Positions 3,752 through 46,318 of a stretch of 64,000 bases of DNA are shown in pieces. Position 1 is the stretch's first letter. Each line of letters begins with the position of its first letter. Source of the stretch: Alphaproteobacteria bacterium (GTDB lineage Bacteria; Pseudomonadota; Alphaproteobacteria; Rs-D84); NCBI GenBank assembly GCA_024402765.1, contig JAKSTC010000001.1:133785-197784 (forward strand). Direction: 5' to 3'. The position numbers were made by a program, and so were the translations under genes. Under the pieces are notes generated by a model that saw only the letters and a list, made by a program, of their open reading frames with translations, had not been told where the DNA came from and ran no database searches.

Positions 3752-3765
3752 CTATCTATTTCCTT

Positions 3766-5346: not shown

Positions 5347-5414
5347 ATCAAAAATCCTTGTTGTTTTTTTATCTGACTATGTGTATTATACCCCTTAGAA
5401 AAGAGATTGCAAAC

Positions 5415-28675: not shown

Positions 28676-28679
28676 CAAG

Positions 28680-28700
28680 GCGCCCATTTGGGCGCTTTTT
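28680..28700 (+). terminator. Rho-independent terminator of the SemiSWEET gene, abutting the island boundary
   Basis: GCGCCC-attt-GGGCGC followed by ttttt. Confidence 0.75.
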
Positions 28701-28703
28701 ATT

Positions 28704-28712
28704 CTGGTGCCC
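28704..28712. repeat. att core copy A (left end of composite island)
   Basis: CTGGTGCCC is identical to the copies at 34672-34680 and 46244-46252. It shares a 10th base (C) with copy B. Confidence 0.65.
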
Positions 28713-28890
28713 CTAGTTCATAATAGTTGGGACAACTGGAATACATTTTATACCGAAATAATCAAAAACGCAAGAATTATCAAGGAAAGCGGTATATCTA
28801 ATGTTTTGCGTGTCGCTAACGGTGGTTTTGTGCCAAATCGCAAGAATCCTAAACCTTAACACCAGGGAAGAATAGGAATGTATATTTATA

Positions 28891-29697
28891 TTAACAAACC
28901 TTTTCGCAATTTGCAGTTTCCTCAGCATTAAACTCTGGAACACGTGCCACTTCGGCAGGTTGTTCAAAGTATGTTTTTATATGACGATAAACATCTTCCA
29001 CAAAGCCCTTGCATTGTTCTGTATTTTCTGTCTGAACCGAAAATGTATTATCATTGTTTTTTCTAATTGATGCTATTGCCACATTGCCACCAATGTAAGC
29101 AGAAGAAACTTCAATTGCGTGGTCGACAGTCCAATAAGCCAGATTAACCGCATTAGCAACATTTGGTATAGAATCTATTTGTATAATCTTTTTTATTAAA
29201 TGAATCGAGGGCATACCATTTGTAAAACCAGAGCCAATAATTGTGTACCACATACCAGAAGATTGAATTGGTGATATCATAAGCCCTGTTATCTTATACA
29301 AATAAAATTCACCACAATGATAAAAACCTATTACTGATACAAATTGAATCTGTTGTAAAAAATCATTGTGTAATTTTTGTATTAATAACCCTTTTGTATG
29401 CTCTGGAACTTTTGTTATCATTAATTCGTTGATAAAGTTATAAAAACCTTTTGTTATATCAGAAATAATAGCATCCGCTGTTCTATCTGGAACATCAAAC
29501 TGAAAATCTTCAAATTTTAAATTCAAAAAATTTAAGAAAAAACGCAAATAATTATCTGCACCAGCACAACAACAAACTATTCTGTTTTTTACTATGTGTG
29601 TTTTCAAATTATCAACACCAACTTGGTCAACAGAACACATTCCGTCAGAAGCAATCACTACACCATCTCTGCATAAAACCCCAATACCAATAGTCAT
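28891..29697 (-). CDS. Proteasome beta/HslV-like Ntn-hydrolase fold protein (candidate toxin or effector)
   Basis: N-terminus M-TIGIGVLCRDGVVIASD, with Thr directly after Met, Asp at mature position 17 and Lys near 31. GSG motif in YTIIGSGFTNG. Lies 6 nt downstream of the Panacea gene. Confidence 0.6.
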   Translation of the reverse strand: MTIGIGVLCRDGVVIASDGMCSVDQVGVDNLKTHIVKNRIVCCCAGADNYLRFFLNFLNLKFEDFQFDVPDRTADAIISDITKGFYNFINELMITKVPEHTKGLLIQKLHNDFLQQIQFVSVIGFYHCGEFYLYKITGLMISPIQSSGMWYTIIGSGFTNGMPSIHLIKKIIQIDSIPNVANAVNLAYWTVDHAIEVSSAYIGGNVAIASIRKNNDNTFSVQTENTEQCKGFVEDVYRHIKTYFEQPAEVARVPEFNAEETANCEKVC

Positions 29698-29703
29698 ATA
29701 AAA

Positions 29704-30150
29704 TTACTCCTGAATCAAAACGCTATTAACTTTCATTTCAGGAAATTCGTCATAAATTGCGAAACACAATTCACGAAAACTCTTTTTTAAAACGAAAGGA
29801 ATTAATGTGCACTGAATATAATCTCTTTCTGCTTTTGTTAAAAAATTGGCTGTGTCAGCACGTTTAACAATTTTATAAAGTGATAAATTGTTGTGTTTTT
29901 CAATTTCCATTTTTTCGTCTTTTACCAATTCATTTATAACAGCTTTCAATTCTGAATCATATGGTCCATATAAATATGGTTGAAAATTGAAATACGTGCC
30001 GTTTTGTCCCAACCTTTTTTCAATCAAAAAAAACAATTTTTGCACCTTTATCGGTGACAAATAAGGATGGTCAGCCGGCAACAAACTAAAAACGTTTAAA
30101 ACAAATTCTTTTCTATCCATAGGTCTATTCTTTACTAAAATATTTACCAA
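29704..30150 (-). CDS. Panacea (DUF4065, SocA/GepA-like) domain protein, candidate antitoxin
   Basis: SPIKVQKLFFLIEKRLG...FQPYLYGPYDSEL matches the KLqKLlY...W.yGPv signature of the family. Confidence 0.65.
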   Translation of the reverse strand: MVNILVKNRPMDRKEFVLNVFSLLPADHPYLSPIKVQKLFFLIEKRLGQNGTYFNFQPYLYGPYDSELKAVINELVKDEKMEIEKHNNLSLYKIVKRADTANFLTKAERDYIQCTLIPFVLKKSFRELCFAIYDEFPEMKVNSVLIQE

Positions 30151-30254
30151 ACATTAATTATTATTGCAACAACAATATAATAAAAACAACGGTTTTGTAT
30201 GTTTGTATTATACCATAAAGCACCATAAAATGAAAGAAAAAACAACTTTCTATA

Positions 30255-30283
30255 TTGCAAAATGGCTTTTTCTGGCATATAAT
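30255..30283 (+). promoter_or_regulatory. Near-consensus sigma70 promoter
   Basis: TTGCAA (30255-30260), 17-nt spacer, TATAAT (30278-30283). Confidence 0.65.
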
Positions 30284-30289
30284 CATAAA

Positions 30290-30532
30290 CAGAGTCGTAA
30301 AACAATTCGGCTTCAGAATCCAAGAGATTGGGTTCGGGGCTATCTCAAGCCCAGTTCATTCGGTGCGAAAGCATCGTTAATCTGATGTGATGGTGTTTTT
30401 GCACCGTTATCATCCCTGACTTATGGTCGGGGGGCTGTTGGTTATAAAATACGGGAAACTGGAAAGCCAATGGAATCAATAATGAACTGATTTGAGAAGT
30501 CCCCGACCGCTCTTTCTTGGGCGGTCTTTTTA
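30290..30532 (+). promoter_or_regulatory. Roughly 240-nt structured leader with mutually exclusive antiterminator and terminator (riboswitch- or attenuator-like)
   Basis: CCCTGAC (30414-20) pairs with GTCGGGG (30426-32). GGTCGGGG (30425-32) pairs with CCCCGACC (30501-08). Terminator GACCGCTC (30505-12) pairs with GGGCGGTC (30519-26), followed by ttttta. The RBS aaaggag and the ATG at 30550 come directly after. Confidence 0.55.
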
Positions 30533-30549
30533 TACAAAGGAGCTCAAAA

Positions 30550-30894
30550 ATGTCAGAAAAAGTCAGTGTAAATCAACAAAGCAATAAAAAAGAAAGAAAT
30601 GTTATTATTTCAGGATATGCTTGGTGGCTAGTAGTCATTGGAGCATTGTTTTCTGGATGTCTTAATGGTTATGATATGCGTTTTGGTATTCAAAATGAAG
30701 ATATAATGTTTTGGTCAACAATTTTGATTGGTTTTATTATGGGCTTAATTCCCGTATGTTTGGCAACATTTCTTGAAAAGAAACATCGTGCATATATTTA
30801 TTGGCTTAGTTTCTTTTCTGTTTGGATGCCACTAGGTATATTTGTTTGGGCGATTGCTGTAATTTGGGCGATTTTTGATAAAAAACGTATATAA
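30550..30894 (+). CDS. Small multi-pass membrane protein
   Basis: Start at MSEKV behind the RBS aaaggag. Three hydrophobic segments (WWLVVIGALF, WSTILIGFIMGLIPVCLA, WMPLGIFVWAIAVIWAIF). Confidence 0.5.
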   Translation: MSEKVSVNQQSNKKERNVIISGYAWWLVVIGALFSGCLNGYDMRFGIQNEDIMFWSTILIGFIMGLIPVCLATFLEKKHRAYIYWLSFFSVWMPLGIFVWAIAVIWAIFDKKRI

Positions 30895-30904
30895 AGGATT
30901 AAAT

Positions 30905-31150
30905 ATGAAAAAAACATTAGTAATAATAACTGCTTGTTTGGTGCTATCTGCTTGTTCTCATACTCATATAACTGAAGATATAATAGGTTATAACGAAACA
31001 GGTAAAGCCTTGGTTAGAGTGTGTAAATCGTCCGGCATTGGTGCCAATGCTAAGGCATTTGGGTCATCGTGCTTAATTGAATTGAGAGATTATGGAAAAA
31101 TTTCTAATACAGCAAATACCATAAATGTGATTTCTAATGACGACAGATGA
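30905..31150 (+). CDS. Small lipoprotein
   Basis: MKKTLVIITACLVLSAC lipobox, RBS aaaggat. Confidence 0.5.
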   Translation: MKKTLVIITACLVLSACSHTHITEDIIGYNETGKALVRVCKSSGIGANAKAFGSSCLIELRDYGKISNTANTINVISNDDR

Positions 31151-31164
31151 AAAAGGATATAAAA

Positions 31165-31821
31165 ATGAAAAAAATAATATTTATAATTATATGCTGTCTA
31201 AGTGTTAATATTTGTCAGGCACAAACATTTAAATCTATGTCAGAACTAGAAGAAGGCTTTATGGCTTTATGTGCTATTGTTGTATTTTTTATAATACTGA
31301 TAATTATAGGTATTCAAAACAATTTACAACAAAAACCGCGTGCAGATAAACCTGTATCGCAACAAGTAAAATTACCTAAAAAAGCAGAGCACGGGGCTAT
31401 GTGGCGATTATTGTTGGGTGGAAGTGAACAGATACCAGAGTTTGATACGATAGTATGTTTTAATAGGGTTCTTGGAAAACCAACTTTGTTCGAATATGAT
31501 GGTGACCTGAATAAGATAAAGAATCTGGCAAACAACCACGGTTTATTAAACTGGCTATGTGATATACGTCAACAATGGTTTGGTCTATTAAAAAACACAA
31601 AAAACATCCCCGTATCAACAATGACATTTTTCTTGTTTGATGCAAAAGGTAACATTTTAGGAATGGCGGCATTGTGGGAAGAAAAAACTTTTGGTAGAGA
31701 CTTCACGCCTTTTAGAATTCCATTAGAGGTTATAAAAGATACTTCATACGATTATCAAAAACTGAAACAAATGTCAGAAAGAAACCGGAAAGCGTTTTTA
31801 GAGGTTGTTGGGGGCAAGTAG
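31165..31821 (+). CDS. Signal-peptide and TM-anchored hypothetical protein
   Basis: MKKIIFIIICCLSVNICQA signal, second TM FMALCAIVVFFIILIIIGI, soluble C-terminal domain. An alternative start exists at 31147. Confidence 0.45.
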   Translation: MKKIIFIIICCLSVNICQAQTFKSMSELEEGFMALCAIVVFFIILIIIGIQNNLQQKPRADKPVSQQVKLPKKAEHGAMWRLLLGGSEQIPEFDTIVCFNRVLGKPTLFEYDGDLNKIKNLANNHGLLNWLCDIRQQWFGLLKNTKNIPVSTMTFFLFDAKGNILGMAALWEEKTFGRDFTPFRIPLEVIKDTSYDYQKLKQMSERNRKAFLEVVGGK

Positions 31822-32116
31822 TAAAAAATACTAGTTTTTGTGGTAATTTTTTTGGACTAGGTATAAAAATGTATGCTTAAAATCACCCAAAAAGCATACT
31901 TTTTTATCACAAATAAGTTAATTAGTGATAATAACGACTTTTATTATTTTGCTCGCAACACCACGGATTTTATGGTGTTGAGCCGTTTTTGATGCGAATA
32001 AAAGTCACAAATAAGCGTTTTTGTCGTAATTTATAAAAACAAATAATTTTGCCCAAAAAGTGTGTATGCGAATACTAACATACATTTTTGGATTAAAAAA
32101 TTTTTTACCAAAACAC

Positions 32117-32161
32117 TTTACATTCTGTTTTTGTATGATAATATTACATATGTGTAATATT
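32117..32161 (+). promoter_or_regulatory. Promoter with overlapping palindromic operator
   Basis: TTTACA (32117-22), 16 nt, TAATAT (32139-44). AATATTACA-tatg-TGTAATATT (32140-32161) overlaps the -10 element and the likely transcription start. Confidence 0.5.
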
Positions 32162-32174
32162 TTATGAGTGTAAA

Positions 32175-32921
32175 ATGACAGACAAGAAAACAAAACACAT
32201 ATTCGATTCTCGTGAATCTTTGCAAGGATGGTCTTTTGATACAGGTTTCAACAAACTAACCTTTAAAAACGCGAAATACGAAATGACTTTTGATGGGCAA
32301 GAATTACAAGAACTTTTGCAAGAAATGTCCACATTAAAAAAAATTATATCCAACGAACCCCAACAAGAATATCCTGGGCAATATCTGGTATCAAATAAAT
32401 CCAAACTAGCACACGTGATACTTACCCAAGAATCAATGGATGTGTTTATGTCTGCATCGGATAATTTGTCAGATAAAAAATACTTACAAGAATTACACGA
32501 CAAAAAGTTTCACAAACAGGATATTCCTATCAGCAGTCGTAATCTGAACGATTGGATACATACACAAAAGTTGCTACCAGACGACCGCACAAACACTGAA
32601 CAATGGCACACCTTTTCCAAAATAGACATCGCATATATTTATGTTCTAAAAGCCTGTCGCGAGTTTGGAATATCACTTCGTTTCTTACATAATGCCAAAG
32701 AATCTTTGCTTACCCGGATACCACAAAGCAAATTCTGTCTGCTTGAAATCGCATACACTTGTTTTGATAAAAGTAAAGAATCTAGGGACATCTTTCTTTA
32801 TATGGATTCCACTGGACATTGCAATATTGCACGTATAGACGATATTGTCCTGATGGCAAAAGAAAAAATGATTAACAAAAATTTCATACTTAACCTTAGT
32901 GAGGTCTGGCGTGAAATATAA
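32175..32921 (+). CDS. MerR-like HTH domain protein (regulator or excisionase-like)
   Basis: Central segment ISSRNLNDWIHTQKLLPDDRTNTEQWHTFSKIDIAYIYVLKACREFGISL follows the MerR HTH/wing pattern. Confidence 0.45.
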   Translation: MTDKKTKHIFDSRESLQGWSFDTGFNKLTFKNAKYEMTFDGQELQELLQEMSTLKKIISNEPQQEYPGQYLVSNKSKLAHVILTQESMDVFMSASDNLSDKKYLQELHDKKFHKQDIPISSRNLNDWIHTQKLLPDDRTNTEQWHTFSKIDIAYIYVLKACREFGISLRFLHNAKESLLTRIPQSKFCLLEIAYTCFDKSKESRDIFLYMDSTGHCNIARIDDIVLMAKEKMINKNFILNLSEVWREI

Positions 32922-33023
32922 GAACCAACCACTTTTACAATGCATCGCACAAACCGATATAAAAGTGGTTTCACTTAACCCTGTTTTTGCTTACGCACAA
33001 TCCGAAGCCAAAACGCAACCAAT

Positions 33024-33212
33024 ATGGTGGATGCGATGGCGACGTTGTCTGTGGCAGAATGCAGAAAACATCTGGGCAACACAAGTTTGACAGACAAACA
33101 AATCGAAACTATCAGGGATAACCTGACGGTAATGATAAACACAATATTTAACAAGGTGCTAAACAATGCAAATAACAAAAGCGGTATGTTATATAAGGGT
33201 ATCAAGCGATAA
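33024..33212 (+). CDS. Small conserved ORF immediately 5' of integrase 1 (candidate directionality factor or regulator)
   Basis: LTDKQIETIRDNLTVMINTIFNKVL aligns with IDTQRAQIISSYLTNIFNTIFNCIL of the ORF at 44400-44567. Overlaps the integrase start. Confidence 0.45.
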   Translation: MVDAMATLSVAECRKHLGNTSLTDKQIETIRDNLTVMINTIFNKVLNNANNKSGMLYKGIKR

Positions 33213-34779
33213 GCAAGTCAGTGATGGCAACGGGTTAGAAACCCAACAATGGGCTTGCCAATCCTGGGCAAAACGTAATGAATACACGATTGAACGCTTT
33301 TTTGTAGATGCCGCTAAAACGGGCACAAAGACCGAGGGTCGCGATAAACTTGCCGAAATGATAGATTACCTGGCAAAGACAAAAGAATCCAGATTAGTAT
33401 TGTTTTATGACATAAGTCGTCTGGCACGTAACGCTGGTGATTTTCTTAAACTTCGTAAATCTATGGAAAAGAGCGGACACAGATTAGCAACCTGTAAAGG
33501 CGTTTTGGAAACAAGCCCTGTTGGAAAATTTATGGCAACGATAGAAGCAGCCCAAGCGGAATTATTTGCAGACCAAAATCGAGAACGCACAGTTGCTGGT
33601 ATGCGTGAAGCCGCAAGGAATGGATATTGGATAACACATCAACCGCCGGGATACCAGTTTGTAAAAGTTGGAAGTCGCAAAGAATTGAAACGACAAGAAC
33701 CCTTGGCGAGTATTATACAAACAGCCCAAGAAGATTTTGCAGATGCTAAGTTATTTTCACAAACTGACGTTGCAAATTTTTTGACCCAAAAGATGCGTTG
33801 CGCTGGATTAGAAACCCCAAAGAACATCTTTGATTTCGTAAAGCGCATTTTGACAGACCGGAAATACACGGCAATTTTTGCATATCCAAAATATGATATA
33901 CCCGTGCAAAAGTGGCATATAGAACCATTGATTAGCACTGAAACTTTTGAGTTAATTCAAGACAGGTTGCACGGTATCAATCGGGTAAAGCATAGAAAAT
34001 ATAACAAGCACGACGAAAGGTTTCCGTTAAAGGGACTGATTATTTGCCCAACGTGTGGTCGTCCATTGACAGCCAGTATGACAAAACGTGGTAAATATCC
34101 ATACTATCAATGTCAAAACAGAAAGTGCCCCGACAAAAAATTAGCAAACGTGTCCCCACAGATATTACACAAAGAATTCGAAACAGAAATCTTGGATAAA
34201 ATCGCCCCATCCGAGAATTTGATTGCGTTAACCCGGGCGATAGCAACAAAAGAATATTCTGAACGCAACAAGTTATCCAGTGCAAATAATGAAGAAAAGA
34301 AAAAGCGTATTAGCGAAATTGAACAAGAACAGTCTAAAATTGCCGATGCTTATATCGGGGCAAGCGATATAATGAAAAAATCGCTTAACCAAAAGATTGA
34401 TGCGCTGGAATCCGAGAAGTTAACATTACAAGACGAAGTTGATAACTACGAACCAGAACTTATGCCATTTGACGAAGCGTTTAATTATGTTGCGGACTTT
34501 TTGAATCGACCAATTGAGGCGTGGCGTAATGGCGATTATGGTATAAAACAAATGGTCCTAAATTTGTGTTTTGCTGATAAAATTTCTTATAACAAAGAGC
34601 AAAAATTTGGGACTCCTAAATTATCCCAGATTTTCAATATGTTCAGCGGTTTTTTACAGGGGAATTCTTGTCTGGTGCCCCAGATGATTTCTCAAGAGGA
34701 CCACATGACTAGATTCTATAACTTGGTTATGGATATGTCAACACAATTGGGTTATATATGCAGAGCTTTTGGTGATTAA
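33166..34779 (+). CDS. Large serine recombinase (integrase 1). The ORF crosses att core B and ends in element-2 sequence.
   Basis: Catalytic N-domain (CYIRVSSDKQ, SRLARN), recombinase domain, zinc ribbon CPTCG...CQNRKC, coiled coil. Colinear with integrase 2 up to NSCLVP. Confidence 0.85.
   Translation: MQITKAVCYIRVSSDKQVSDGNGLETQQWACQSWAKRNEYTIERFFVDAAKTGTKTEGRDKLAEMIDYLAKTKESRLVLFYDISRLARNAGDFLKLRKSMEKSGHRLATCKGVLETSPVGKFMATIEAAQAELFADQNRERTVAGMREAARNGYWITHQPPGYQFVKVGSRKELKRQEPLASIIQTAQEDFADAKLFSQTDVANFLTQKMRCAGLETPKNIFDFVKRILTDRKYTAIFAYPKYDIPVQKWHIEPLISTETFELIQDRLHGINRVKHRKYNKHDERFPLKGLIICPTCGRPLTASMTKRGKYPYYQCQNRKCPDKKLANVSPQILHKEFETEILDKIAPSENLIALTRAIATKEYSERNKLSSANNEEKKKRISEIEQEQSKIADAYIGASDIMKKSLNQKIDALESEKLTLQDEVDNYEPELMPFDEAFNYVADFLNRPIEAWRNGDYGIKQMVLNLCFADKISYNKEQKFGTPKLSQIFNMFSGFLQGNSCLVPQMISQEDHMTRFYNLVMDMSTQLGYICRAFGD
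34672..34680. repeat. att core copy B (junction between elements 1 and 2)
   Basis: CTGGTGCCC encodes LVP inside integrase 1. The left flank (ttttacaggggaattcttgt) is homologous to the left flank of copy C (ttttacacatcaactcttat). Confidence 0.6.
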
Positions 34780-34788
34780 ACCAATTAT

Positions 34789-34826
34789 ATTTGATTTAGA
34801 CATAGAAAATAATGTCCAAATCAAAT
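34789..34826. repeat. Imperfect inverted repeat, candidate res/crossover site for the adjacent resolvase
   Basis: ATTTGATTTAGACAT-agaaaata-ATGTCCAAATCAAAT: 15-bp arms with 1 mismatch, 82 nt upstream of the resolvase ATG. Confidence 0.45.
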
Positions 34827-34908
34827 CATTAATAGCTTGCTTTTTGGACACTTTCACGTCAGTGTACAGCTATATTTAAAGGTTTCAATTATACAAAAGG
34901 ATATTCAT

Positions 34909-35472
34909 ATGGTAAAAATTCTATATGTAAGGGTTTCAACTATTACCCAAAATGAAGATAGACAGGTTCAGGAAGCAGATAATTATGACAAAGTATTTTT
35001 AGATAAGTGTTCAGGGAAAGATGTAAATAGACCAGCCTTGCAAGAAATGCTTTCTTATGTAAGAGATGGCGATGAAGTATATGTGCACGAACTATCAAGA
35101 TTAGGAAGAAATACATTTGATTTACTAAAATTGGTAAGAACCTTACTTGATAAATCTGTTAGTGTGCATTTTATAAAAGAAAATCTGCATTTTAACCCAG
35201 ATAAAGCAGACCCTGTATCCAATATGACTTTTGAAATATTTTCAGCAGTTGCAAGCTTTGAACGACAACTTATAAACCAAAGATGCCAAGAAGGTAGAGT
35301 TCTGGCAAAAGCAGCCGGTAAATATAAGGGCTCTAAAAAGCACCTATCTAATGAACAAATTGCTGAACTCAAAGAATTGGTAGCACAAAACAGAAAAGTA
35401 TGGACACCTACTGCTTTGGCTAAAAGATACAGCATATGCAGAGCAAGCGTTTATAATTATCTAAAAATGTAA
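34909..35472 (+). CDS. Small serine recombinase (resolvase/invertase, Hin/Tn3 type)
   Basis: ILYVRVSTITQNEDRQ catalytic Ser region, SRLGRN, C-terminal HTH LAKRYSICRASVYNYLK. Start at 34909 behind the RBS aaaagga. Confidence 0.85.
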   Translation: MVKILYVRVSTITQNEDRQVQEADNYDKVFLDKCSGKDVNRPALQEMLSYVRDGDEVYVHELSRLGRNTFDLLKLVRTLLDKSVSVHFIKENLHFNPDKADPVSNMTFEIFSAVASFERQLINQRCQEGRVLAKAAGKYKGSKKHLSNEQIAELKELVAQNRKVWTPTALAKRYSICRASVYNYLKM

Positions 35473-35558
35473 ATTCAAAATTTAGTCATGTTTAATCCAG
35501 ACAAATAAGTAATGAAGATAGAATCTTCATTAACAATAATAACCAAAAGGGTTAAACC

Positions 35559-35996
35559 ATGGCAAAGATAAAAAGAAAGAAGCTGGTAAAGCTAATTAAT
35601 AGAACAAAAAACGAACAAATAGACAATATCTGGTTACACATTGGATTTCTGGGTACTAACATAGATGGCTGTCTAGGCAGACTGATTCCTACAGATTCTA
35701 TGTTTACAGAAGATGAAAGGTTTCCAGATACTTTATCTGAGATACAAAACTTTCTTGGTCATGTAATGACTGTTAAAAGATTAATGTTAATCAGACAATG
35801 TAGTGTTAATCCAGAAATAGTTCATATGATACACCAATTAGAAGAAAACCCTCAAAATATTTGGCAAATCTTTAATGAACATAGGCATATCTTTGATATA
35901 AAAAAGAAGTCAAATAATCAATCTAAAGAAGATGATAAAGAAAAATATAATACTATTAAAAAAGTTGTTGAAAAATGGCTTTCAAAAGAAGAATAA
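35559..35996 (+). CDS. Hypothetical protein
   Basis: 145-aa ORF with the RBS aaaaggg. No recognisable motif. Confidence 0.35.
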   Translation: MAKIKRKKLVKLINRTKNEQIDNIWLHIGFLGTNIDGCLGRLIPTDSMFTEDERFPDTLSEIQNFLGHVMTVKRLMLIRQCSVNPEIVHMIHQLEENPQNIWQIFNEHRHIFDIKKKSNNQSKEDDKEKYNTIKKVVEKWLSKEE

Positions 35997-36041
35997 ATAT
36001 AAACCCACGATTATTAGCCGTGGGAGTTATACAATTTGTAA

Positions 36042-39000
36042 TTATTTGAAATAAATATTCAATATTTCTGTTACTGAGTCCCTTATAGATTCTTGTTCTT
36101 TGGATATACTATCTATTTCTTGCTCTAATGGGCTAATTAAATCTATAATTTTGTTTTGGTCAGAAAGGTTATGTAAATCAATTTGCAAAGCATATGCATC
36201 GTTTCTGTTCAAACCTCCAGAGCCTAATCCTTTATTCAAAGATTCTAAATTTAACCTTTTTAAAACAAAATACACATAGTCTATCAAAACAGAATTATTC
36301 TTTATATTAACATAATAAGTTGTATCTATAGGGGTATTGTTCATTGATATTTTATTAACCTTGCCAACAGAACCTTTTCTGCCCACTATTATAGAAGGAC
36401 CTTTAATAAGGTATTTATCATGATACCCTATTATGCCATTAGCACCAACAACAGGATATTCACCATCATTTCGTTTTTGTTTTGGAAGAGGTACACCATA
36501 TTCCAAAGAAATAATATCTCCTAATCTTTTTTTATCTGTTGAAGTAAAAGATTTAAATATATCAAACTCTTCTTGAAGAAGTTTTTTCTTCTTTAAAAGT
36601 AAACTACTTTGCTTATCGTATAGTATGTGCAATTTTTCTATAATATTTTCTTGGTCTTTTTTTGGAAGAACAGGTATTTTTATTTTTAGTATATTGGTTT
36701 TAGACAATCCGCCCTGTGCTGCACCAGAAACAACAGATTTCATCATATTTTGACCGTAATCAGAATATAAAAAAGCAAACAAATATTCTTGTAAAATTTT
36801 ATTTGTTTTAGCACGTAAAATAAAAACATGTTCGTTAACAGAGCTTTTGCTATACGGATACCCAGAATCTAACAATGCAACTTTCCCTGTTAAAGCTCCA
36901 TCTTTACACAACAAAATGTCATTTGGTTTTATAATACCATGTGACATTCTATCAAATTCATCCTCTGTTATGTATCTCATATTTGAAAAAACAACTTTAC
37001 CATCTAAACCTATATGTTCACCACCTAAACTAGGTATTCCAGTCTTTTGTCGTTCTTGGCCAATTTTACTGTTTCTGCTGCCCGTTTGTATGGTTTCTAA
37101 CAAATTACCAAGTTGTTCCAAAGGATATGTTGTATCAAACTCTATTTTTTTTTTAGCATTTAAATTAAGAGATTTATTAAATTGCACCGTATCAAACGAT
37201 ATTAAATCAGATAAATTTAGATAATCTATATGTTCATGTAAACTATGGTCTGGATTATTTTTGATACTCACAACTTCTTTTGCTACATTCACATTCTGAA
37301 AATTATTCAATATATATGTATTTAGCTTACAACCGTTATATTTATTCAAACAATCAAATAATTTAGTCTTTATATTGTTATCGGCATCTCTATATATTTG
37401 AATACCCTCATGTCCCCTGCGATTTGAAAATTCATAGCCATAGAAAGCCTTTTCTGTATCTTTGTCTTTGGAATCAGCTAAAACTATTTTTTGTGTATAC
37501 GTCAATGCAAAATATGTTAATTTTTCTTTCTCTATTTCAATCACTTCAGAAACAGGAATATCTTTATATTCCTTACAAAAATCACTATTCATATCACAAG
37601 TTGACTTATTGTTTTTTAGAAAATTAACATAATCTTCAAATTTTAAACTGTCCCAAACAGAATTAATATATAAAGAAACACAATTTTTTATTCCATTTAT
37701 TGATACATCTTCGTATGTTTCAAAGAACTTTTCTGTTGCCGATTTTATTTCTTCAAAAACAAAAGATGCTCTTTTTCTCATAAACAAAATAACAGTTTTT
37801 GTATTGGTTGCTGCAAATGCCTGTCCGCCCAAAGCAACAATTGCTTTGAATTCAAAATTCTTTAACAAAATTTCTCTGGCTTTTTCATAAATACCGTTAT
37901 TAGTTAATACAGATATCGGTAATACTATTGCAACAATACCATTTTCTCGTACTAATTGTTTTGCTCTTTCTATAAATAAACATTCTATTTCAGAACTGTT
38001 ATCTGTTAAATCCTTATATAAATCAAAAGAATTAATACCATCATTTAAAGTGTTTTTAAATGCTCTGACGGCATAAGGTGGGTTTGATATTAAGACATCA
38101 AATTGTTCATTATCTTTGGTGTTTTTTAGACTTTTTAATTTATCTTTATACACTGTGCTTTTAGAAAAACTATCTAAGCCATCCGCATGAATAATATTTG
38201 CCAAACCATCGCCATTTAGGAAACATGCAATTTTTGTGGTTTTTACCAAACGATAATCTAAATCAATACCATAAACATATTTTTCTGCCCAAGCGAAATC
38301 ATTTATTTGCCAAGATTCTACCTCTTTTTTTAGAGAGGTTTTAGCGATCTTACTGGTGTCAACAGTTTTAATGATTTTATTATATTCATCCATAACTTCT
38401 GTTAAAAAATGTCCAGATCCCATGGCATAATCTATAGTGTATGGTAATATATCATCTTTTTTGTTTTGAATGTTATCATAAATAATTTCTCTTAATGGTA
38501 TACTATTTATTATAAACTGTGTTATTGGTACAGGTGTAAAAAACTGTCCGGACTCTTGCTTAATACTATCTTTTAAAAGACTTTCAAAAAAATCACCTAA
38601 AAATTGTTGTTTATGAGAATAGCGTAGTTGTTTGTCTTGTAATAATTCTACAATTTCACGAACAACTTTTGCATTATCTTTAAAAGATTGCTTGTCAAAA
38701 ACTTCTCTAAAACCAAAAACATTGTCTTTATACAATCTTAACTGTCTATAGGCATCGATTAATTCTTGATTGTTAGCTCTGTTAGCAATAGATTGAAAAT
38801 CCTGAAGAGTAATATCTTCAATGTCCTTATTTAGGTAATATTTCATGCCGTTCATATACAAATCAGATAAATCTAGCAATAAATCTTCATCTGATTTTTC
38901 GTTGGTACCACTACGAGTTTGAAATTTCAATTCTTCATCGTCGTTTGTATCTTCATCATAAATTTTGCATAAAAACAAATTAATAATTTTATTAAAAGCA

Positions 39001-39752
39001 TTTGATTTATCTGAAATAACATTATGTCTTAATATTTCAGCAAATTTATTGTATATGTTATCACCATCAACTTTATTTAATGGTTTTAAATCCATTTTTG
39101 TTAATGCTTTAGATTGCAAATTGTAAGGTTTAACCCAAGATTCAAAAATGCCGTTGTCTTCAAATTTGCCCAACCACCTATTGTATCTATCTTCTTGATT
39201 TAAATCTGCCCAATCTTTATGATTATAAACAATGGAAGTTTTGTATTCTTGGGTATCTGGATTATATGTATATAAACATATGGCTTCTGTTGTTTTGGGT
39301 TCCTGTTGCAAATAACTAAAAATTTGTGAACCATTTTTAGATTTATTTAAGGTGTTTTTAATCTCTGTTTCAAAATCTTTTCCCCAAACTTTGCATTCAA
39401 TCATCAAAAACGCCATACCATGCAAATCTTTAACAAGAATATCTAGAAAACCCTTGCCGTTATGCCCCAGATTCCATGTTTTTTCTAACTCTATACTTTC
39501 TGGTTTATAACCTTTTTCTAAAAGCCTATTAACACACTCTAAAACAACAAAACTTTCTGTTTGGTGAAAATTACACGTTGTTTTACGACCTGTTTTTATT
39601 TTTGTACCATAATCAATAATAGAATTCTGTGGGCAAATGCAATCATACTTTATGGTAATTTCATATCCATTATAACACTTAGCCCAAACATTAGTTTGTC
39701 CTGATTTTGGTGAAAAACCAATGGATTCAATAAGTTGTATAAAATTACTCAT
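36042..39752 (-). CDS. Single-polypeptide restriction-modification-specificity enzyme (Type IIB/IIG, AloI/CjeI-like)
   Basis: N-terminal PD-(D/E)xK (FLDILVKD...FLMIECK). Gamma-class N6-adenine methyltransferase motifs DYAMGSGHFL and NPPY (LISNPPYAV). Two C-terminal HsdS-like target-recognition domains separated by a coiled-coil spacer. 1236 aa. Confidence 0.75.
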   Translation of the reverse strand: MSNFIQLIESIGFSPKSGQTNVWAKCYNGYEITIKYDCICPQNSIIDYGTKIKTGRKTTCNFHQTESFVVLECVNRLLEKGYKPESIELEKTWNLGHNGKGFLDILVKDLHGMAFLMIECKVWGKDFETEIKNTLNKSKNGSQIFSYLQQEPKTTEAICLYTYNPDTQEYKTSIVYNHKDWADLNQEDRYNRWLGKFEDNGIFESWVKPYNLQSKALTKMDLKPLNKVDGDNIYNKFAEILRHNVISDKSNAFNKIINLFLCKIYDEDTNDDEELKFQTRSGTNEKSDEDLLLDLSDLYMNGMKYYLNKDIEDITLQDFQSIANRANNQELIDAYRQLRLYKDNVFGFREVFDKQSFKDNAKVVREIVELLQDKQLRYSHKQQFLGDFFESLLKDSIKQESGQFFTPVPITQFIINSIPLREIIYDNIQNKKDDILPYTIDYAMGSGHFLTEVMDEYNKIIKTVDTSKIAKTSLKKEVESWQINDFAWAEKYVYGIDLDYRLVKTTKIACFLNGDGLANIIHADGLDSFSKSTVYKDKLKSLKNTKDNEQFDVLISNPPYAVRAFKNTLNDGINSFDLYKDLTDNSSEIECLFIERAKQLVRENGIVAIVLPISVLTNNGIYEKAREILLKNFEFKAIVALGGQAFAATNTKTVILFMRKRASFVFEEIKSATEKFFETYEDVSINGIKNCVSLYINSVWDSLKFEDYVNFLKNNKSTCDMNSDFCKEYKDIPVSEVIEIEKEKLTYFALTYTQKIVLADSKDKDTEKAFYGYEFSNRRGHEGIQIYRDADNNIKTKLFDCLNKYNGCKLNTYILNNFQNVNVAKEVVSIKNNPDHSLHEHIDYLNLSDLISFDTVQFNKSLNLNAKKKIEFDTTYPLEQLGNLLETIQTGSRNSKIGQERQKTGIPSLGGEHIGLDGKVVFSNMRYITEDEFDRMSHGIIKPNDILLCKDGALTGKVALLDSGYPYSKSSVNEHVFILRAKTNKILQEYLFAFLYSDYGQNMMKSVVSGAAQGGLSKTNILKIKIPVLPKKDQENIIEKLHILYDKQSSLLLKKKKLLQEEFDIFKSFTSTDKKRLGDIISLEYGVPLPKQKRNDGEYPVVGANGIIGYHDKYLIKGPSIIVGRKGSVGKVNKISMNNTPIDTTYYVNIKNNSVLIDYVYFVLKRLNLESLNKGLGSGGLNRNDAYALQIDLHNLSDQNKIIDLISPLEQEIDSISKEQESIRDSVTEILNIYFK

Positions 39753-39897
39753 ATAGTATATCTTTTCTTATATTTTAACATATAATTGGCATAAATTCAC
39801 CAAAAATATTAAAAAAAATCCACATAAAAATCAATAATATTTTAAATATTAGTAATTTTTATTAGAGTGGATTATGTAATAAAAAACAATAAATACA

Positions 39898-40620
39898 TTA
39901 TTTTTTTGGTTTTTTGCTCATTTTTTCACCTGTTTCAGCAAAAAAAGCATCGTCACTATTTATTGCTCCAGATGTAATAATGAATATAGCATCTCCTGTA
40001 TTCATTACAAAATCTTTGTATTTTAAATCTTTGCACCTGTTTCTAAAAAGCCGTAGTTGTGTTGAATCTTCTTGTGTTGTATAAAACCCAAGTTTTACAG
40101 TAAATAAGTACCCAACCAAATCTTCAACTAAATTAAGGTCAGAAGAATCACACATTGCAAAGCAATTAATGAAGCTTTCTAATCTTATATACGATAATAA
40201 ATTGACTGTTTCTTCTGGATAATCAAACAATAATTGTCCTATGTCAGGAATTACATATACTATATTTCTGTTTATTCCTAATGTTTCCAGATGTTTTATA
40301 CTATCAAAGAATTCTTCTTCTGATTTGATGAGATTGAAATGTTTTGTGTGTTCTGGAAAAATTGATAACCATTCAATTTCTCCCTTATCTAAAATATACA
40401 CACGTGAAGTATCTTTGTTTGTTGTATCAAAAAATAATTTCATATGATCTATTAACCAGTTTTTTTCTATTTCAAAAGAAATAGATTTTTCACCTGTAAA
40501 TAAAATTGTCTGAAAACTTAAAGGTGTACAGTTTTTCAATACATCATTATCGTCAAATACACATAAAGATTTATGTAATAAATTTTCATTACATCTTGCA
40601 AAATTTGCTGCTATTTTCAT
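39898..40620 (-). CDS. Hypothetical protein downstream of the prim-pol gene
   Basis: 240-aa ORF with the RBS aaggag. No recognisable motif. Confidence 0.35.
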   Translation of the reverse strand: MKIAANFARCNENLLHKSLCVFDDNDVLKNCTPLSFQTILFTGEKSISFEIEKNWLIDHMKLFFDTTNKDTSRVYILDKGEIEWLSIFPEHTKHFNLIKSEEEFFDSIKHLETLGINRNIVYVIPDIGQLLFDYPEETVNLLSYIRLESFINCFAMCDSSDLNLVEDLVGYLFTVKLGFYTTQEDSTQLRLFRNRCKDLKYKDFVMNTGDAIFIITSGAINSDDAFFAETGEKMSKKPKK

Positions 40621-40742
40621 TTTTTACTCCTTATTTATACATATATTTATCAAATGTAAACAAACATAAAAATTTACTTTTGCATATGTAAAAAAAACTA
40701 AATATCTAAACTTTTTGCTAAAAGGTAAATTTCAATAAATAA

Positions 40743-40768
40743 TATATTAAGTAGTACTACTTAATATA
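40743..40768. repeat. 26-bp perfect palindrome between prim-pol and the 240-aa ORF
   Basis: TATATTAAGTAGT|ACTACTTAATATA. Confidence 0.7.
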
Positions 40769-40799
40769 AATTTTTTTTATTTTACCTTTGACAGACATG

Positions 40800-42596
40800 T
40801 TATCTATATGCAGGTCTATCATATATTTCAGGGTGAATTTCTTTCACCACATTTTTTCGTGTGATTTCATAATTTATAGTATCTATTTCTCCTGCTGGTC
40901 TAAAACAATCTATGTTTTCCTTGAAAGACACGATAACTGTTTTTAACACCTGTAAATCTTTTATTCTGGTATATTTAATCACATTGCTAAAATTTAAAAT
41001 ATTTTGAGCAACTATATTAAATATATTTTTCCCTAAAATACAATTATAATTACTGTCCAAGATAACAAATCTTGCACACATTACACCTGGGATATAATAA
41101 TTACCTTGTTGGTCTATAACTAAATATAATCCATATAAATTAGATATGAATGCATTTATTTTTCTAACTATCCCTGTTGTTTCACCACTTATATTGATTA
41201 TTCTATTAATGTAAACAGTTCCCAGGTTGCCACATAGATTATTATATTTTGTTGAATCTTGTATTTTTATATAATTATTAAAGAAGTTATTAACTATATC
41301 ATTAATATTATCTTCTGATAGTTTGTGCTTTCGTGCTTTTTTATTATATTCATTTAAAAAATAATTTATGGCAAATTTTTCTGCTAATAAAACATCTGTT
41401 TTATTAACATCCGGTAAATAATCGTGCCAGTCTTTGACTTCTTCAACAAACTCTCTTTTGTTTATTTTAAGTCCTTTTACAAGATATTCTACTTGGGATG
41501 TTAATTGATCTGTGTTTGATAAAATATCTGCATTACCACCAAGTTTTTTTATTGTATTTACTATTTCAGGGACATTACTCATAAAATCACTAATGTTAGG
41601 GTTCTTTTGTTTTTCTTGGTGAATTATATATGGCACTAATTGAGATAGTTCTTCATATGAATTGCCACGTGATAGACCTTGGGAAAATATTTTTTGTCCA
41701 ATTTCTATGTTAGATTGACCATTCGTTATTGCAGATGCTTCTTTTTGTGCCTTGTTATCCTCAGTGTGTTTTTGGGGATGATTTGACTGTGAAACTGTGT
41801 GCCGCTCTTCAAAAATACTTTCGTCTATTGACAATGAATTTTGCTTTAATGTTAAAATTGCATCAGAAAAAGCTTCATATACATCATATTCTGAATAATA
41901 TGATTTTCTATATTGTAATGTCCCAGGAACCCTAAACCATGCTTTGGGCATATCAATAATTTTCTGACATACAGGTAATTCTATTTTCAATAGCTGAGAT
42001 GCCACATTTTGTAAATATTTTTGAACCATACGTCTTTGTTTAGAAGTCATATCCTTATCACAAAAAATCCACATATGTGTGCCCATTCCATTGTTTTTAT
42101 TTTCATAAACAGAATTGTTTCTGAATGAATTAATAAAAGCAGATTGTATTTTGGTGTATTGGTCTTTTAATGATTCTTCATGACAATCTAAATCTATCCA
42201 CAATACCCTTGAATACTCTTGCTGAATAAACCCATAGTTATCAAAATTATTTTGAATATATCTCAGTTTGTTAAAATAGTTATCTTGGTTTTTAAATTTA
42301 CAAGGACGACCTTTTTGTTTGGCATATTGATTTGAATAAAAACTTAAAACCTTATTGGTTTTTGGGTCTTTATAACCAACAAAATGAATGTTATAACCAA
42401 ATTCTTTCAGAATATATCTTTTTAATTCATATGTTTTTTGATTACGTCTCTTTAATGCTTTTTTTATACCAAAAAATAGTTTTTTTTCTTTGTTTGATAA
42501 TGTTTTTATGTCTTTTGATAAAAGTTCTTTAACTTTTTCATCGTCTAAAGAAATTCCATGATAATAATTATATGTAGAATTCATGATGAGCCTCAT
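40800..42596 (-). CDS. Primase-polymerase (AEP/prim-pol) type replication protein
   Basis: Motif I VLWIDLDCH (DxD), motif II GMGTHMWIF (sxH), motif III WFRVPGT. The long C-terminal domain has no obvious Walker A. Confidence 0.55.
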   Translation of the reverse strand: MRLIMNSTYNYYHGISLDDEKVKELLSKDIKTLSNKEKKLFFGIKKALKRRNQKTYELKRYILKEFGYNIHFVGYKDPKTNKVLSFYSNQYAKQKGRPCKFKNQDNYFNKLRYIQNNFDNYGFIQQEYSRVLWIDLDCHEESLKDQYTKIQSAFINSFRNNSVYENKNNGMGTHMWIFCDKDMTSKQRRMVQKYLQNVASQLLKIELPVCQKIIDMPKAWFRVPGTLQYRKSYYSEYDVYEAFSDAILTLKQNSLSIDESIFEERHTVSQSNHPQKHTEDNKAQKEASAITNGQSNIEIGQKIFSQGLSRGNSYEELSQLVPYIIHQEKQKNPNISDFMSNVPEIVNTIKKLGGNADILSNTDQLTSQVEYLVKGLKINKREFVEEVKDWHDYLPDVNKTDVLLAEKFAINYFLNEYNKKARKHKLSEDNINDIVNNFFNNYIKIQDSTKYNNLCGNLGTVYINRIINISGETTGIVRKINAFISNLYGLYLVIDQQGNYYIPGVMCARFVILDSNYNCILGKNIFNIVAQNILNFSNVIKYTRIKDLQVLKTVIVSFKENIDCFRPAGEIDTINYEITRKNVVKEIHPEIYDRPAYR

Positions 42597-42654
42597 TTTA
42601 TATTATGGTTAATATGCCCCTTGAAAAAATTTTTCCAAGGGACACGTGTGTTAG

Positions 42655-43728
42655 TCACGCCGTTGGCATGGTTTCAATTAATTGTTTTACAAGACCAGGT
42701 AAGAAACATTCCCCTATACAGGTCCTAATTAGATTTTCTGAACACCAATCTGGCACTGGATAATCATCTGGTAATCCTGTTAACCTCAATATTTCTAACA
42801 AAGATAGAACACGAGCGTCGCTGTAAAGACCGTCTGGCATAAGGCGACCAGGATGACCTGTTGATTGAGAGCCCCAACTTCCATTGTTTGTCGTGATTGT
42901 CGGGGCTGGTTTATCCCAAGAAATCCTTGAATACGATTGCCGGAAAGATTTCACTCTAGAACCATCTGCTTTTCGTGGATAAAAGAATTTGTTATCCTGT
43001 GAACAGCCCCCTGAAGGTGTGTGTCTCATAGTAATAACATGTCTTTCTGGTAAAGATGGGGCTTTATGATATTTTATTCCACTATCTTCACCTGCTTCTA
43101 TACTGGGTAAATCACCAATGACATCAATTACTCTGATTTGGCGATCACGCTTTTGTGGTGCTGGCCAAAAGCCATGTTTTGATGCTAGTACAATGGCTCT
43201 TTTTCTGTGTTGTGGAATTCCAAAATCTGCTGCATCTAGTACAACTATATTAACATTATATCCTAAACCTGTTAATGTCTCGTCAATAAGTTTTCTTATC
43301 TGGATTTTTGCATCGCCAACTTGGATATGTGCTGTCAAAAATTGAGGCACATTTTCTATGATAACATATTCAGGATCAGTCCTACGTATGATATCTAAAG
43401 TTGGTAGAATCAAAAATTGTCTCTGATCATTTTGCTTGTTTCCAGTAGTATTAACAGGGGCAAAACTTTGGCACGGGGGTGTTCCTAGAATCATTTTGCA
43501 TCCGAGTTCTTCATATTGTTGCACAATTTGGTTTTGAACATTTGGATCCGTGACGTCGCCACAAATCATTTTTACATCTGGATATATTGCTTCATACAAT
43601 TTTGCCCTTGATGAGTTTATTTCATTAGCCAATGCTACTTGAACATTTGTGTTTGCCAAATAGTATTCACTTATACCAGCACCCGAACAAATCGAGCAGA
43701 CATTAATGCCTTTCAAAGAATTCGACAT
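42655..43728 (-). CDS. DNA (cytosine-5)-methyltransferase
   Basis: Motif I CSICSGAGIS, IV GTPPCQSF, VI ENVPQF, VIII QHRKRAIVLA. Confidence 0.88.
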   Translation of the reverse strand: MSNSLKGINVCSICSGAGISEYYLANTNVQVALANEINSSRAKLYEAIYPDVKMICGDVTDPNVQNQIVQQYEELGCKMILGTPPCQSFAPVNTTGNKQNDQRQFLILPTLDIIRRTDPEYVIIENVPQFLTAHIQVGDAKIQIRKLIDETLTGLGYNVNIVVLDAADFGIPQHRKRAIVLASKHGFWPAPQKRDRQIRVIDVIGDLPSIEAGEDSGIKYHKAPSLPERHVITMRHTPSGGCSQDNKFFYPRKADGSRVKSFRQSYSRISWDKPAPTITTNNGSWGSQSTGHPGRLMPDGLYSDARVLSLLEILRLTGLPDDYPVPDWCSENLIRTCIGECFLPGLVKQLIETMPTA

Positions 43729-43894
43729 TTTATAGTCCCTTTTTTTACAAAGATCCCTAAAAAAGAACCTTTTGGGTTAAATTTTCCAAAAAACTGGGGC
43801 ACTAGCACATTTTGATATATGTGCTTTAAACCCCTGTTTTTTGGGACTTTTGATAAAAAAAGAAGAAAAATTTTTTTAAAATTTTAAAAAAAAC

Positions 43895-43922
43895 TTTACA
43901 AATGTCATTTCTGCACTATAAT
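43895..43922 (+). promoter_or_regulatory. Near-consensus sigma70 promoter of the sRNA candidate
   Basis: TTTACA (43895-43900), 16 nt, TATAAT (43917-43922). Confidence 0.55.
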
Positions 43923-43928
43923 CTCACT

Positions 43929-44030
43929 TACGGACGTGAATAATAAGTACAGAAAAATCTTTGCGTTTTTCTTCTTTTATTCTCAAAAAAAGGAGGACGG
44001 ATTTCGATCCGTCTCTCCCTCTTTTGTTTG
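43929..44030 (+). ncRNA. Candidate roughly 100-nt small RNA (promoter to terminator, no ORF)
   Basis: Runs from the promoter above to the GC-rich hairpin GGAGGACGGAT-ttcg-ATCCGTCTCTCC (43992-44018) plus a U-rich tail. There is no start codon with an ORF in between. Confidence 0.45.
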
Positions 44031-44140
44031 AAAAATAGTATAACACGAAAATAATAAATTTCAAATGTTTTTTCTAAAAAATCAAAACAAATTTTTTTCT
44101 TGTCTTTTTCAAAAACACGACGTTTTCTGGCTTATTTATA

Positions 44141-44183
44141 AATTATTATGTAATATTAATTATATTAATATTACATAATAATT
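44141..44183. repeat. 43-bp perfect palindrome (20-bp arms, 3-nt spacer), candidate ori or operator
   Basis: AATTATTATGTAATATTAAT-tat-ATTAATATTACATAATAATT. Contains the TGTAATATT/AATATTACA half-sites also found at 32140-32161. Confidence 0.8.
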
Positions 44184-44399
44184 ATAAAATAATTTGTTAA
44201 AAAAATTAGAAAAATTCAAATCTTTGTTGGTTGTGCATCTGTCTTATGTTTGCTGTTTTTTTGTTTGTTATGCCCTATAAACCGATTCGTTTTTGATAAA
44301 TTTTTTCACCTTAAAAAAGATTTTATGTAAGATAATTTTATTATTGAAATTTCATAATTGATGACGGTATTAATTTTATATTAATGAAAGGGTTATATT

Positions 44400-44567
44400 A
44401 TGGAAAAAATTAATTTTACCAGAAACAAAGAAGCACCTGCAAATTTATCAAATGATAATGACATTGTTAAAAGTTTAGAAAATTTACAAATAGACACTCA
44501 ACGTGCACAAATTATAAGTAGTTATTTAACTAATATTTTTAATACTATTTTTAATTGTATTTTATAG
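44400..44567 (+). CDS. Small conserved ORF (55 aa) immediately 5' of integrase 2, not in the ORF track
   Basis: MEKINFTRNKEAPANLSNDNDIVKSLENLQIDTQRAQIISSYLTNIFNTIFNCIL. The C-terminal 25 aa align with the ORF at 33024-33212 (9 identities, including NTIFN). Confidence 0.45.
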   Translation: MEKINFTRNKEAPANLSNDNDIVKSLENLQIDTQRAQIISSYLTNIFNTIFNCIL

Positions 44568-44584
44568 TGGTGGGGGGGATTATT

Positions 44585-46255: not shown

Positions 46256-46318
46256 GCAAGAATCGGACTTGCGACTCGTCCTTACCAAGGACGTGTTTTA
46301 CCACTAGACTATTAGGGC
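46245..46318 (-). tRNA. tRNA-Thr(GGT), CCA encoded
   Basis: Reverse complement is GCCCTAATAGTCTAGTGGTAAAACACGTCCTTGGTAAGGACGAGTCGCAAGTCCGATTCTTGCTTAGGGCACCA. Perfect acceptor and anticodon stems. The T-loop is TCCGATT (C at position 55), and the D stem has one mismatch. Confidence 0.85.

Follow-up and report, generated by a model that had tools for sequence, protein, structure and literature searches.

What does a small Panacea-like gene do directly upstream of a gene for a proteasome-like protein? The question is raised by two adjacent genes, here called geneA and geneB, in the genome of an uncultured alphaproteobacterium of the Rs-D84 lineage (assembly GCA_024402765.1). We analysed a stretch of 64,000 nucleotides of its contig JAKSTC010000001.1, referred to as the window, and all positions are those of the window. 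geneA (29704..30120, minus strand, 138 amino acids) appears to encode a stand-alone, divergent Panacea-domain protein, SocA/PanA-like and similar to the C-terminal part of DarG. geneB (28891..29697, minus strand) encodes a protein of 268 amino acids, predicted to be a proteasome-beta-like N-terminal nucleophile (Ntn) hydrolase without a propeptide, with a helical insertion after helix H2, a C-terminal helix and a disordered tail. We propose that the two genes make up a self-contained, horizontally mobile operon whose most likely function, at about even chances, is that of a toxin-antitoxin or abortive-infection module of the PanAT type. The original prediction, made from the sequence alone, had seen here a PanA-type antitoxin controlling a threonine-protease effector.

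Two coding genes with a common history

Both open reading frames (ORFs) of the original prediction are present on the minus strand, co-oriented and separated by exactly 6 nucleotides (29698-29703). The ORF of geneA opens at a TTG (30150..29704) and has the 148 codons first ascribed to it; its relatives, however, are 136-146 amino acids long and begin at a methionine that corresponds to position 30120, so that the product is probably the 138-residue protein starting at the ATG found there. The motifs quoted at the outset, KVQKLFFLIE and YLYGPYDSEL in geneA, M-TIGIGVLCRDGVVIASD and YTIIGSGFTNG in geneB, were all found again. Both are real coding genes, with homologues and under purifying selection: across four related loci the ratio of non-synonymous to synonymous divergence (dN/dS) lies at 0.07-0.24 for geneB and, where the comparison is informative, at 0.08-0.10 for geneA. 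We also considered positive selection on geneB and ruled it out, as dN/dS is just 0.2-0.3 in its variable region (residues 56-150).

Does the pair exist elsewhere? A search with a geneA profile gave 100 loci (80 metagenomic, 17 from IMG/VR and 3 others). A geneB-family ORF lies on the same strand, 0-32 nucleotides 3' of geneA, in 85 of the 95 loci with downstream room (about 90%), and the recurrence in other genomes that the original prediction looked for is thus found. In the opposite direction, starting from geneB, geneA is upstream in every locus with room, and no geneB without geneA was seen among these loci, which represent about six independent lineages. The two proteins also evolve in step: their pairwise distances correlate over 68 pairs (r = 0.77), a value reached by 0 of 999 permutations in a Mantel test. 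geneA and geneB are inherited together and diverge together.

The exceptions vary: in one locus geneB is inverted, in another geneA is duplicated in tandem, some retain a truncated remnant of geneB next to an intact geneA, and a few have geneA as an orphan. geneB is split in three further loci. L099-101, L037, L061 and L077 are the loci where geneA has no geneB at its side or has one that is truncated or split. The remnant in L099-L101 (MTAIVGVLCE..., around 6430-6490) adjoins an intact geneA and a phage terminase. In L096 (5986-7217), two tandem geneA paralogues occur with no geneB, and in L031 (2080-2946) geneB is inverted and convergent to geneA.

A conserved third gene was ruled out, as no other gene family recurs beside the pair. 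Small ORFs 5' of geneA in L001, L002 and the window were likewise rejected as parts of the module: they are unrelated or have lost their frame.

A proteasome-like protein with a complete catalytic set

The AlphaFold2 (AF2) model of geneB (predicted local distance difference test, pLDDT, 78.7; predicted template modelling score, pTM, 0.78) has the order of strands and helices expected for the proteasome type. Foldseek comparison of this model with the PDB returned 20S subunits as best matches (E ~1e-9, template modelling score, TM, ~0.6) out of 1119 matches at E<=0.001, with TM values of 0.5-0.68 for the top ones. The Ntn-type fold first read from the sequence is thus borne out by the model. 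The C-terminal extension of about 60 residues that had been described is real as extra length, but is distributed otherwise: about 16 residues form a helix inserted after H2 (99-114), and further additions lie at the C terminus, namely helix H5 (227-245) and a tail of some 23 disordered residues.

At the level of the family, sequence profiles agree. An exhaustive profile search (E<=1e-3) defines a geneB family of 718 representatives at 50% identity, nearly all of 240-280 amino acids, whose clusters carry the names 'hypothetical protein' or '20S proteasome alpha/beta subunit' and nothing more. The Pfam proteasome model PF00227 is matched by 69 of 75 sampled family members (best E-value 3.8e-13); geneB itself scores 21.8 bits, for a cut-off of 22.4. 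Taken together as a profile, the 75 members match an archaeal proteasome beta subunit, 3h4p (1.6e-11), their initial Met-Thr falling on Thr1, and each of the 60 best matches of this profile in the PDB is an alpha or beta subunit of a 20S proteasome. The original prediction had invoked HslV, Anbu and BPH as well. This particular likeness did not hold: no such chain is among these 60 matches, the nearest solved relatives being 20S beta and alpha subunits, and we ruled out an HslV, Anbu or BPH identity.

The catalytic residues were read correctly, with Thr2 as first mature residue, Asp18 (mature 17), Lys32 (mature 31) and a GSG at 155-157. In 70 unique full-length geneB relatives adjoining a geneA relative, T2, C9, D18, K32, G46, G155 and P178 are 100% conserved; T2, D18, K32 and G46 are the equivalents of Thr1, Asp17, Lys33 and the oxyanion Gly47 of the proteasome, so that the catalytic residues proposed at first turn out to be invariant across the family. 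Cys9 is invariant too. All 70 proteins begin with (M/V/L)T and lack a propeptide; removal of the initiator methionine should therefore suffice to expose the threonine nucleophile. geneB is a proteasome-beta-like protein whose catalytic set, as predicted from its residues, is intact. Most family members also end in a short motif, hPxhP[K/R] (residues 250-257 in the window protein), after a variable linker. Its central proline is kept in 64 of the 70 sequences, and in the clade of the window the motif has shrunk to VPEF or IPDL.

Proteins of this description have been reported before. Fuchs, Alva and Lupas (2021), who surveyed 22 new proteasome homologues from bacteria and archaea, described orphan families (among them PHI, WPH, PHD and PMI) which, like geneB, have about 250 residues and Thr1/Asp17/Lys33 but no propeptide, carry an insertion after H1/H2 and a C-terminal H5, are closest to 20S subunits and are distributed broadly but sparsely. 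Judged from its description, PHI resembles geneB in the helix inserted after H2 and in the helix at the C terminus, and geneB is probably a member of one of these named clusters. The difference lies in the surroundings: geneB has a near-obligate partner gene, whereas no genomic context pointing to a function was reported for the surveyed homologues (PMC8665760).

A divergent Panacea-like partner

The affiliation of geneA is less direct. Tried both as 148 and as 138 amino acids, the window protein matches no Pfam family at E<=1. It belongs to a family of at least 2043 relatives of about 141 amino acids (profile search), and 41 of 50 relatives that are 34-55% identical to it match PF13274 (SocA_Panacea) at E<=0.1. 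Among ten relatives tested, four (P0192, P0244, P0245 and P0262) score 26.2-30.0 bits, over a cut-off of 25.7, and span positions 1-109 of the 113 in the model. The NCBIfam SocA_antitoxin model is also matched by relatives (1.7e-4), while geneA matches the PADLOC model PDC-M19A at 4.8e-11 and the C-terminal part of DarG at 4e-7 (PADLOC) and 8e-5 (NCBIfam). Its sole solved relative detectable by sequence is a DarG chain, 7yk3_B, with the motif QKL...F.P..YGP in common. The 'Panacea-domain' label is thus one of transitive homology, since the window protein itself lacks a direct Pfam match: of the DUF4065/Panacea identity first proposed, homology at the level of the family stands and the direct match does not. 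Together these profile matches support the placement of geneA in a divergent Panacea-domain family.

Y51, G52 and D55 are invariant in 50 geneA relatives and P53 is kept in at least 90% of them, giving a YGP(Y/F)D signature which appears to retain the G-P of the Panacea GPV motif, with V replaced by Y or F. Invariant QKL...YGP(F/Y)D...PEM motifs are common to the geneA family and the DarT-binding part of DarG. Binding of DarT by DarG maps to the C-terminal domain of DarG. In Panacea proteins, the GPV motif was reported to be critical for neutralisation (PMC8832971).

The fold of geneA was not placed by structure comparison. Searched against PDB and BFVD, its AF2 model (pLDDT 89) gave weak winged-helix matches alone (E>=0.04), with MarR, MecI and Sso10a proteins among the best (E ~0.06-0.5, TM 0.3-0.4); weak PadR, RTP and TrmB matches occur among other family members.

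As a side observation, geneA-family proteins match the N-terminal half of PDC-M19A (PDLC04505), an uncharacterised defence candidate, with E-values down to 8.5e-15, and, at 2.5e-8, the C-terminal domain of a fusion with a type I restriction specificity subunit (PDLC03184, Specificity_I). Other defence contexts thus contain related Panacea-like domains.

Mobile and defence-like surroundings

The pair recurs in many uncultured bacteria and in some phage contigs. In the window it occupies a hotspot between tRNA-Thr and aspS that varies with respect to the related metagenome-assembled genome UBA3635 and to four metagenomic contigs. A 15.7-kb island of low GC content (27-33%, about 30571-46244) lies between the pair and tRNA-Thr (46245-46318, minus strand). 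The original prediction had set the two genes at the very edge of a mobile element. They do adjoin this recombinase-bearing island, but are not part of it: UBA3635 lacks the island at the orthologous locus and keeps the pair, which thus lies outside. We found no att-like direct repeats around the island.

Has the pair itself moved? Between species, in the UBA3635 comparison, nucleotide identity is 85-92% over the pair with its non-coding flanks (85% for the pair), versus 69-73% for the flanking core genes. Synonymous divergence (dS) along the pair is moreover mosaic when the window is compared to L008, L109 and L111. Against L111, dS is 0.013 for geneA and 0.70 for geneB; the C-terminal third of geneB is nearest to L109, with a dS of 0.12 versus about 1.0 for the N-terminal part. 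Such a mosaic, along with an identity above that of the flanking core genes, points to recombination or transfer, and indicates that lineages have recombined within the module.

In L109, a sister metagenomic contig, an Mrr_cat nuclease and a DarT/macrodomain-DarG pair are found between geneA-geneB and aspS (2751-6849); the tRNA-Thr/aspS hotspot therefore collects defence and toxin-antitoxin modules. Elsewhere the pair adjoins transposases and RhuM, and its neighbours in IMG/VR include a type I R subunit, a SacI endonuclease, the large terminase TerL and a P22-type portal. The settings of geneA-geneB are mobile or defence-like. The distribution is sparse: tblastn with the window copy and a main-family copy found no geneB in INPHARED phages or PLSDB plasmids, and patterns specific to the close family matched one of 185,579 GTDB species genomes, that of UBA3635.

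A restrained effector or a protease with its adaptor?

How might such a pair work? In the scenario that we favour, geneA would be made first from a common transcript, with translational coupling to geneB. It would bind geneB directly, as PanA antitoxins and the C-terminal domain of DarG bind their toxins, and hold it inactive: geneA might cover the active site or stand in the way of the oligomerisation on which proteasome-type activity depends. Some trigger, for instance infection by a phage or the loss of the element, would remove or alter geneA; the freed protease could then assemble and degrade cellular or phage proteins, leading to growth arrest or aborted infection. As geneB has no propeptide, its control would have to come after translation.

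Several lines suggest a PanAT-like function: Panacea domains and the C-terminal domain of DarG are established as direct binders, the bicistronic layout puts the putative antitoxin first, geneB lacks a propeptide, geneA occurs as an orphan and geneB in decayed form, an asymmetry expected of toxin and antitoxin, and the settings are mobile and defence-type. Direct binding of toxins was shown in the Panacea papers (PMC8832971, PMC10440598), and DarG directly binds and inhibits DarT (PMC8832971). The pair has in common with PanAT systems (Kurata et al. 2022, Ernits et al. 2023) a small Panacea-like gene directly 5' of the gene for a larger, putative effector, a bicistronic and mobile unit of patchy distribution, full-domain matches to PF13274 within the family and a conserved signature that contains GP. 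The pair differs from PanAT in its partner, a proteasome-like Ntn hydrolase, in having GP(Y/F) for GPV, in the dedication of its Panacea subfamily to one partner and in a window geneA that falls below Pfam detection. With DarTG the common ground is the match of the geneA family to the C-terminal part of DarG in PADLOC, NCBIfam and 7yk3_B and the QKL...F.P..YGP motif; this similarity is remote, however (E 1e-8 to 0.09), geneA-geneB has neither macrodomain nor DarT, and a true DarT/DarG pair sits apart in the same hotspot of the sister genome.

The pairing appears to be undescribed, as the original prediction supposed. The main texts and text supplements of the Panacea and NetFlax papers (PMC8832971, PMC10440598) make no mention of a proteasome or Ntn partner, and a combination of Panacea/DUF4065 and proteasome genes was not found in full-text literature searches, in the 2021 survey of proteasome homologues or in PADLOC. 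What is new here is that an architecture of the PanAT type combines a putative effector of a new class with a Panacea subfamily dedicated to it. That it would be the first toxin-antitoxin or abortive-infection family with a proteasome-like, potentially self-compartmentalising threonine protease as effector, restrained by a dedicated Panacea-domain sensor or inhibitor, is a claim we make tentatively, at somewhat less than even chances.

Several points weigh against a toxin-antitoxin function. geneA is the more conserved of the two (mean pairwise identity 45% versus 38%; dN/dS 0.09 versus up to 0.24), the reverse of the usual fast-evolving antitoxin. Its subfamily is dedicated to a single partner, unlike the hyperpromiscuous PanA, and the expectation of promiscuous Panacea behaviour, with many unrelated toxins downstream, fails in this case. 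The founding Panacea protein SocA is itself a protease adaptor, not an inhibitor, which keeps an adaptor role alive. The window proteins are marginal by Pfam standards, with no PF13274 match for geneA at E<=1 and a score 0.6 bits under the PF00227 cut-off for geneB. The geneB-anchored sample amounts to just about six independent lineages, PADLOC holds no geneB model and hence offers no defence precedent, and the toxin and antitoxin roles, toxicity and phage phenotype are ones that we infer.

Could geneA instead be a dedicated adaptor or assembly factor of the geneB protease (for substrate delivery, as a chaperone or as a gate), the pair carrying out specific and non-toxic proteolysis? This is the main rival, unlikely in our estimate yet to be taken seriously. 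SocA delivers SocB to ClpXP as a proteolytic adaptor (PMC8832971), and geneA relatives match the NCBIfam SocA model. SocAB, a type VI toxin-antitoxin system, resembles the pair in that a Panacea protein works with a compartmentalised protease, but proteolysis there falls to the housekeeping ClpXP, with SocB as the toxin. The tight one-to-one pairing with co-divergence of geneA and geneB, and the better conservation of geneA, also fit an adaptor, and the C-terminal hPxhP[K/R] of geneB resembles a docking peptide. A partner of another type is plausible besides, given that no AAA+ partner was found for the new proteasome homologues (PMC8665760). HslV, Anbu and BPH are bacterial proteasome-fold proteases; the inspected neighbourhoods of the pair contain no HslU/AAA+ gene and no Anbu-operon gene (transglutaminase, ATP-grasp or alpha-E). 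A patchy and rare distribution in varied mobile, restriction-modification or phage surroundings speaks against an adaptor, as do the lack of a recurrent substrate-like third gene and the decay of geneB beside an intact geneA in several loci.

A transcriptional geneA, a connectase-like geneB and reversed roles are all less likely than either the PanAT-like or the adaptor reading. That geneB is a non-degradative Ntn transpeptidase, ligase or amidohydrolase of the connectase kind, or that the roles are reversed and geneB is a protease-like antitoxin acting on geneA, in the manner of the ImmA-type RmrA, we hold to be improbable. The monomeric ligase connectase is a proteasome homologue (PMC8665760), and the helical insertion after H2 may block ring assembly, as discussed for the PHI and PMI families; the insertion between S3 and S4 and the loss of H1/H2 that go with connectase are, however, absent from the geneB model. 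Antitoxins with a protease domain do exist (PMC10440598), but Panacea domains are so far known just as antitoxins or adaptors, and the tolerance of loci with geneA alone argues against geneA as the toxin. Most improbable is that geneA is a mere winged-helix transcription factor which regulates geneB or the operon without any protein-protein control: the MarR, MecI and Sso10a matches, like those to PadR, RTP and TrmB, would favour it, but they are below significance and cover the central hairpin alone, whereas Panacea is matched over the full length, Ernits et al. argue against Panacea as the DNA-binding autoregulator (PMC10440598), and the family shares its invariant motifs with the DarT-binding part of DarG.

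A near-obligate Panacea-like partner gives one family of orphan proteasome homologues its first genomic context and its first testable functional hypothesis, and offers the proteasome field a simple two-gene system to express. If the PanAT-like reading is true, the pair would represent a new class of toxin-antitoxin or defence effector, an N-terminal-threonine protease without propeptide whose activity is probably dependent on assembly, and would add a Panacea subfamily with one dedicated partner to the promiscuous ones. It could show how Panacea domains restrain their partners, by a block of the active site or of assembly; the proteasome fold would have been repurposed by bacteria and phages as a suicide or anti-phage weapon, and at least one orphan family of bacterial proteasome homologues would gain a function. 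The pair was probably overlooked because it occurs almost wholly in uncultured bacteria and is absent from INPHARED, PLSDB and PADLOC.

Expression signals and neighbouring elements

An AGGAG Shine-Dalgarno motif of geneB, read from the sequence, lies within the last codons of geneA (29707..29711, minus strand), a position compatible with translational coupling. An extended -10 element, TGGTATAAT (30207..30215, minus strand), is located about 85 nucleotides 5' of the geneA ATG and is identical in the orthologous UBA3635 locus. It was not called by a simple two-hexamer promoter scan; we consider it the likely promoter of the geneA-geneB operon. At the other end, a GC-rich hairpin (28677..28698, both strands) between the convergent neighbour gene and the pair is a possible bidirectional terminator, with a weak T-run on the minus strand.

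A candidate structured small RNA of about 245 nucleotides (30290..30535, plus strand) runs divergently to geneA and, within the alphaproteobacterial clade, is conserved together with the pair. It is preceded by a promoter-like TTGCAA-17-TATAAT (30255-30283) and ends in a Rho-independent terminator (30505-30526). A strong structure is predicted, with a minimum free energy (MFE) of -104.6 kcal/mol (z = -8.4). A comparison of 6 loci shows compensatory changes at seven base pairs, many of the G-U pairs can form on the plus strand alone, and the sequence is 92% identical to that of UBA3635. No part of the window matches an Rfam family at the gathering threshold; sRNA-Xcc1 (RF02221) reaches 41.2 bits at 30425-30516 (plus strand), under its gathering score of 53. 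The conserved 20-nucleotide core of the candidate was not found in IMG/VR, nor was the RNA detected by Rfam beside distant copies of the pair, and a role in the geneA-geneB module is unproven.

Three serine recombinases are encoded on the island itself (33166-34779, 34837-35472 and 44555-46255), together with a restriction-methyltransferase of type IIG (36042-39752), a primase resembling AEP/TOTE (40800-42596) and, beside an unassigned ORF of 240 amino acids (39898-40620), a C5 DNA methyltransferase (42655-43728).

On the other side of the pair, a putative coding ORF of 50 codons with a GTG start (28707-28859, plus strand) is convergent to geneB. It is kept in all alphaproteobacterial relatives, at 80-84% amino acid and about 88% nucleotide identity, and belongs to the flank instead of the pair, since the Mrr insertion separates it from geneB in L109.

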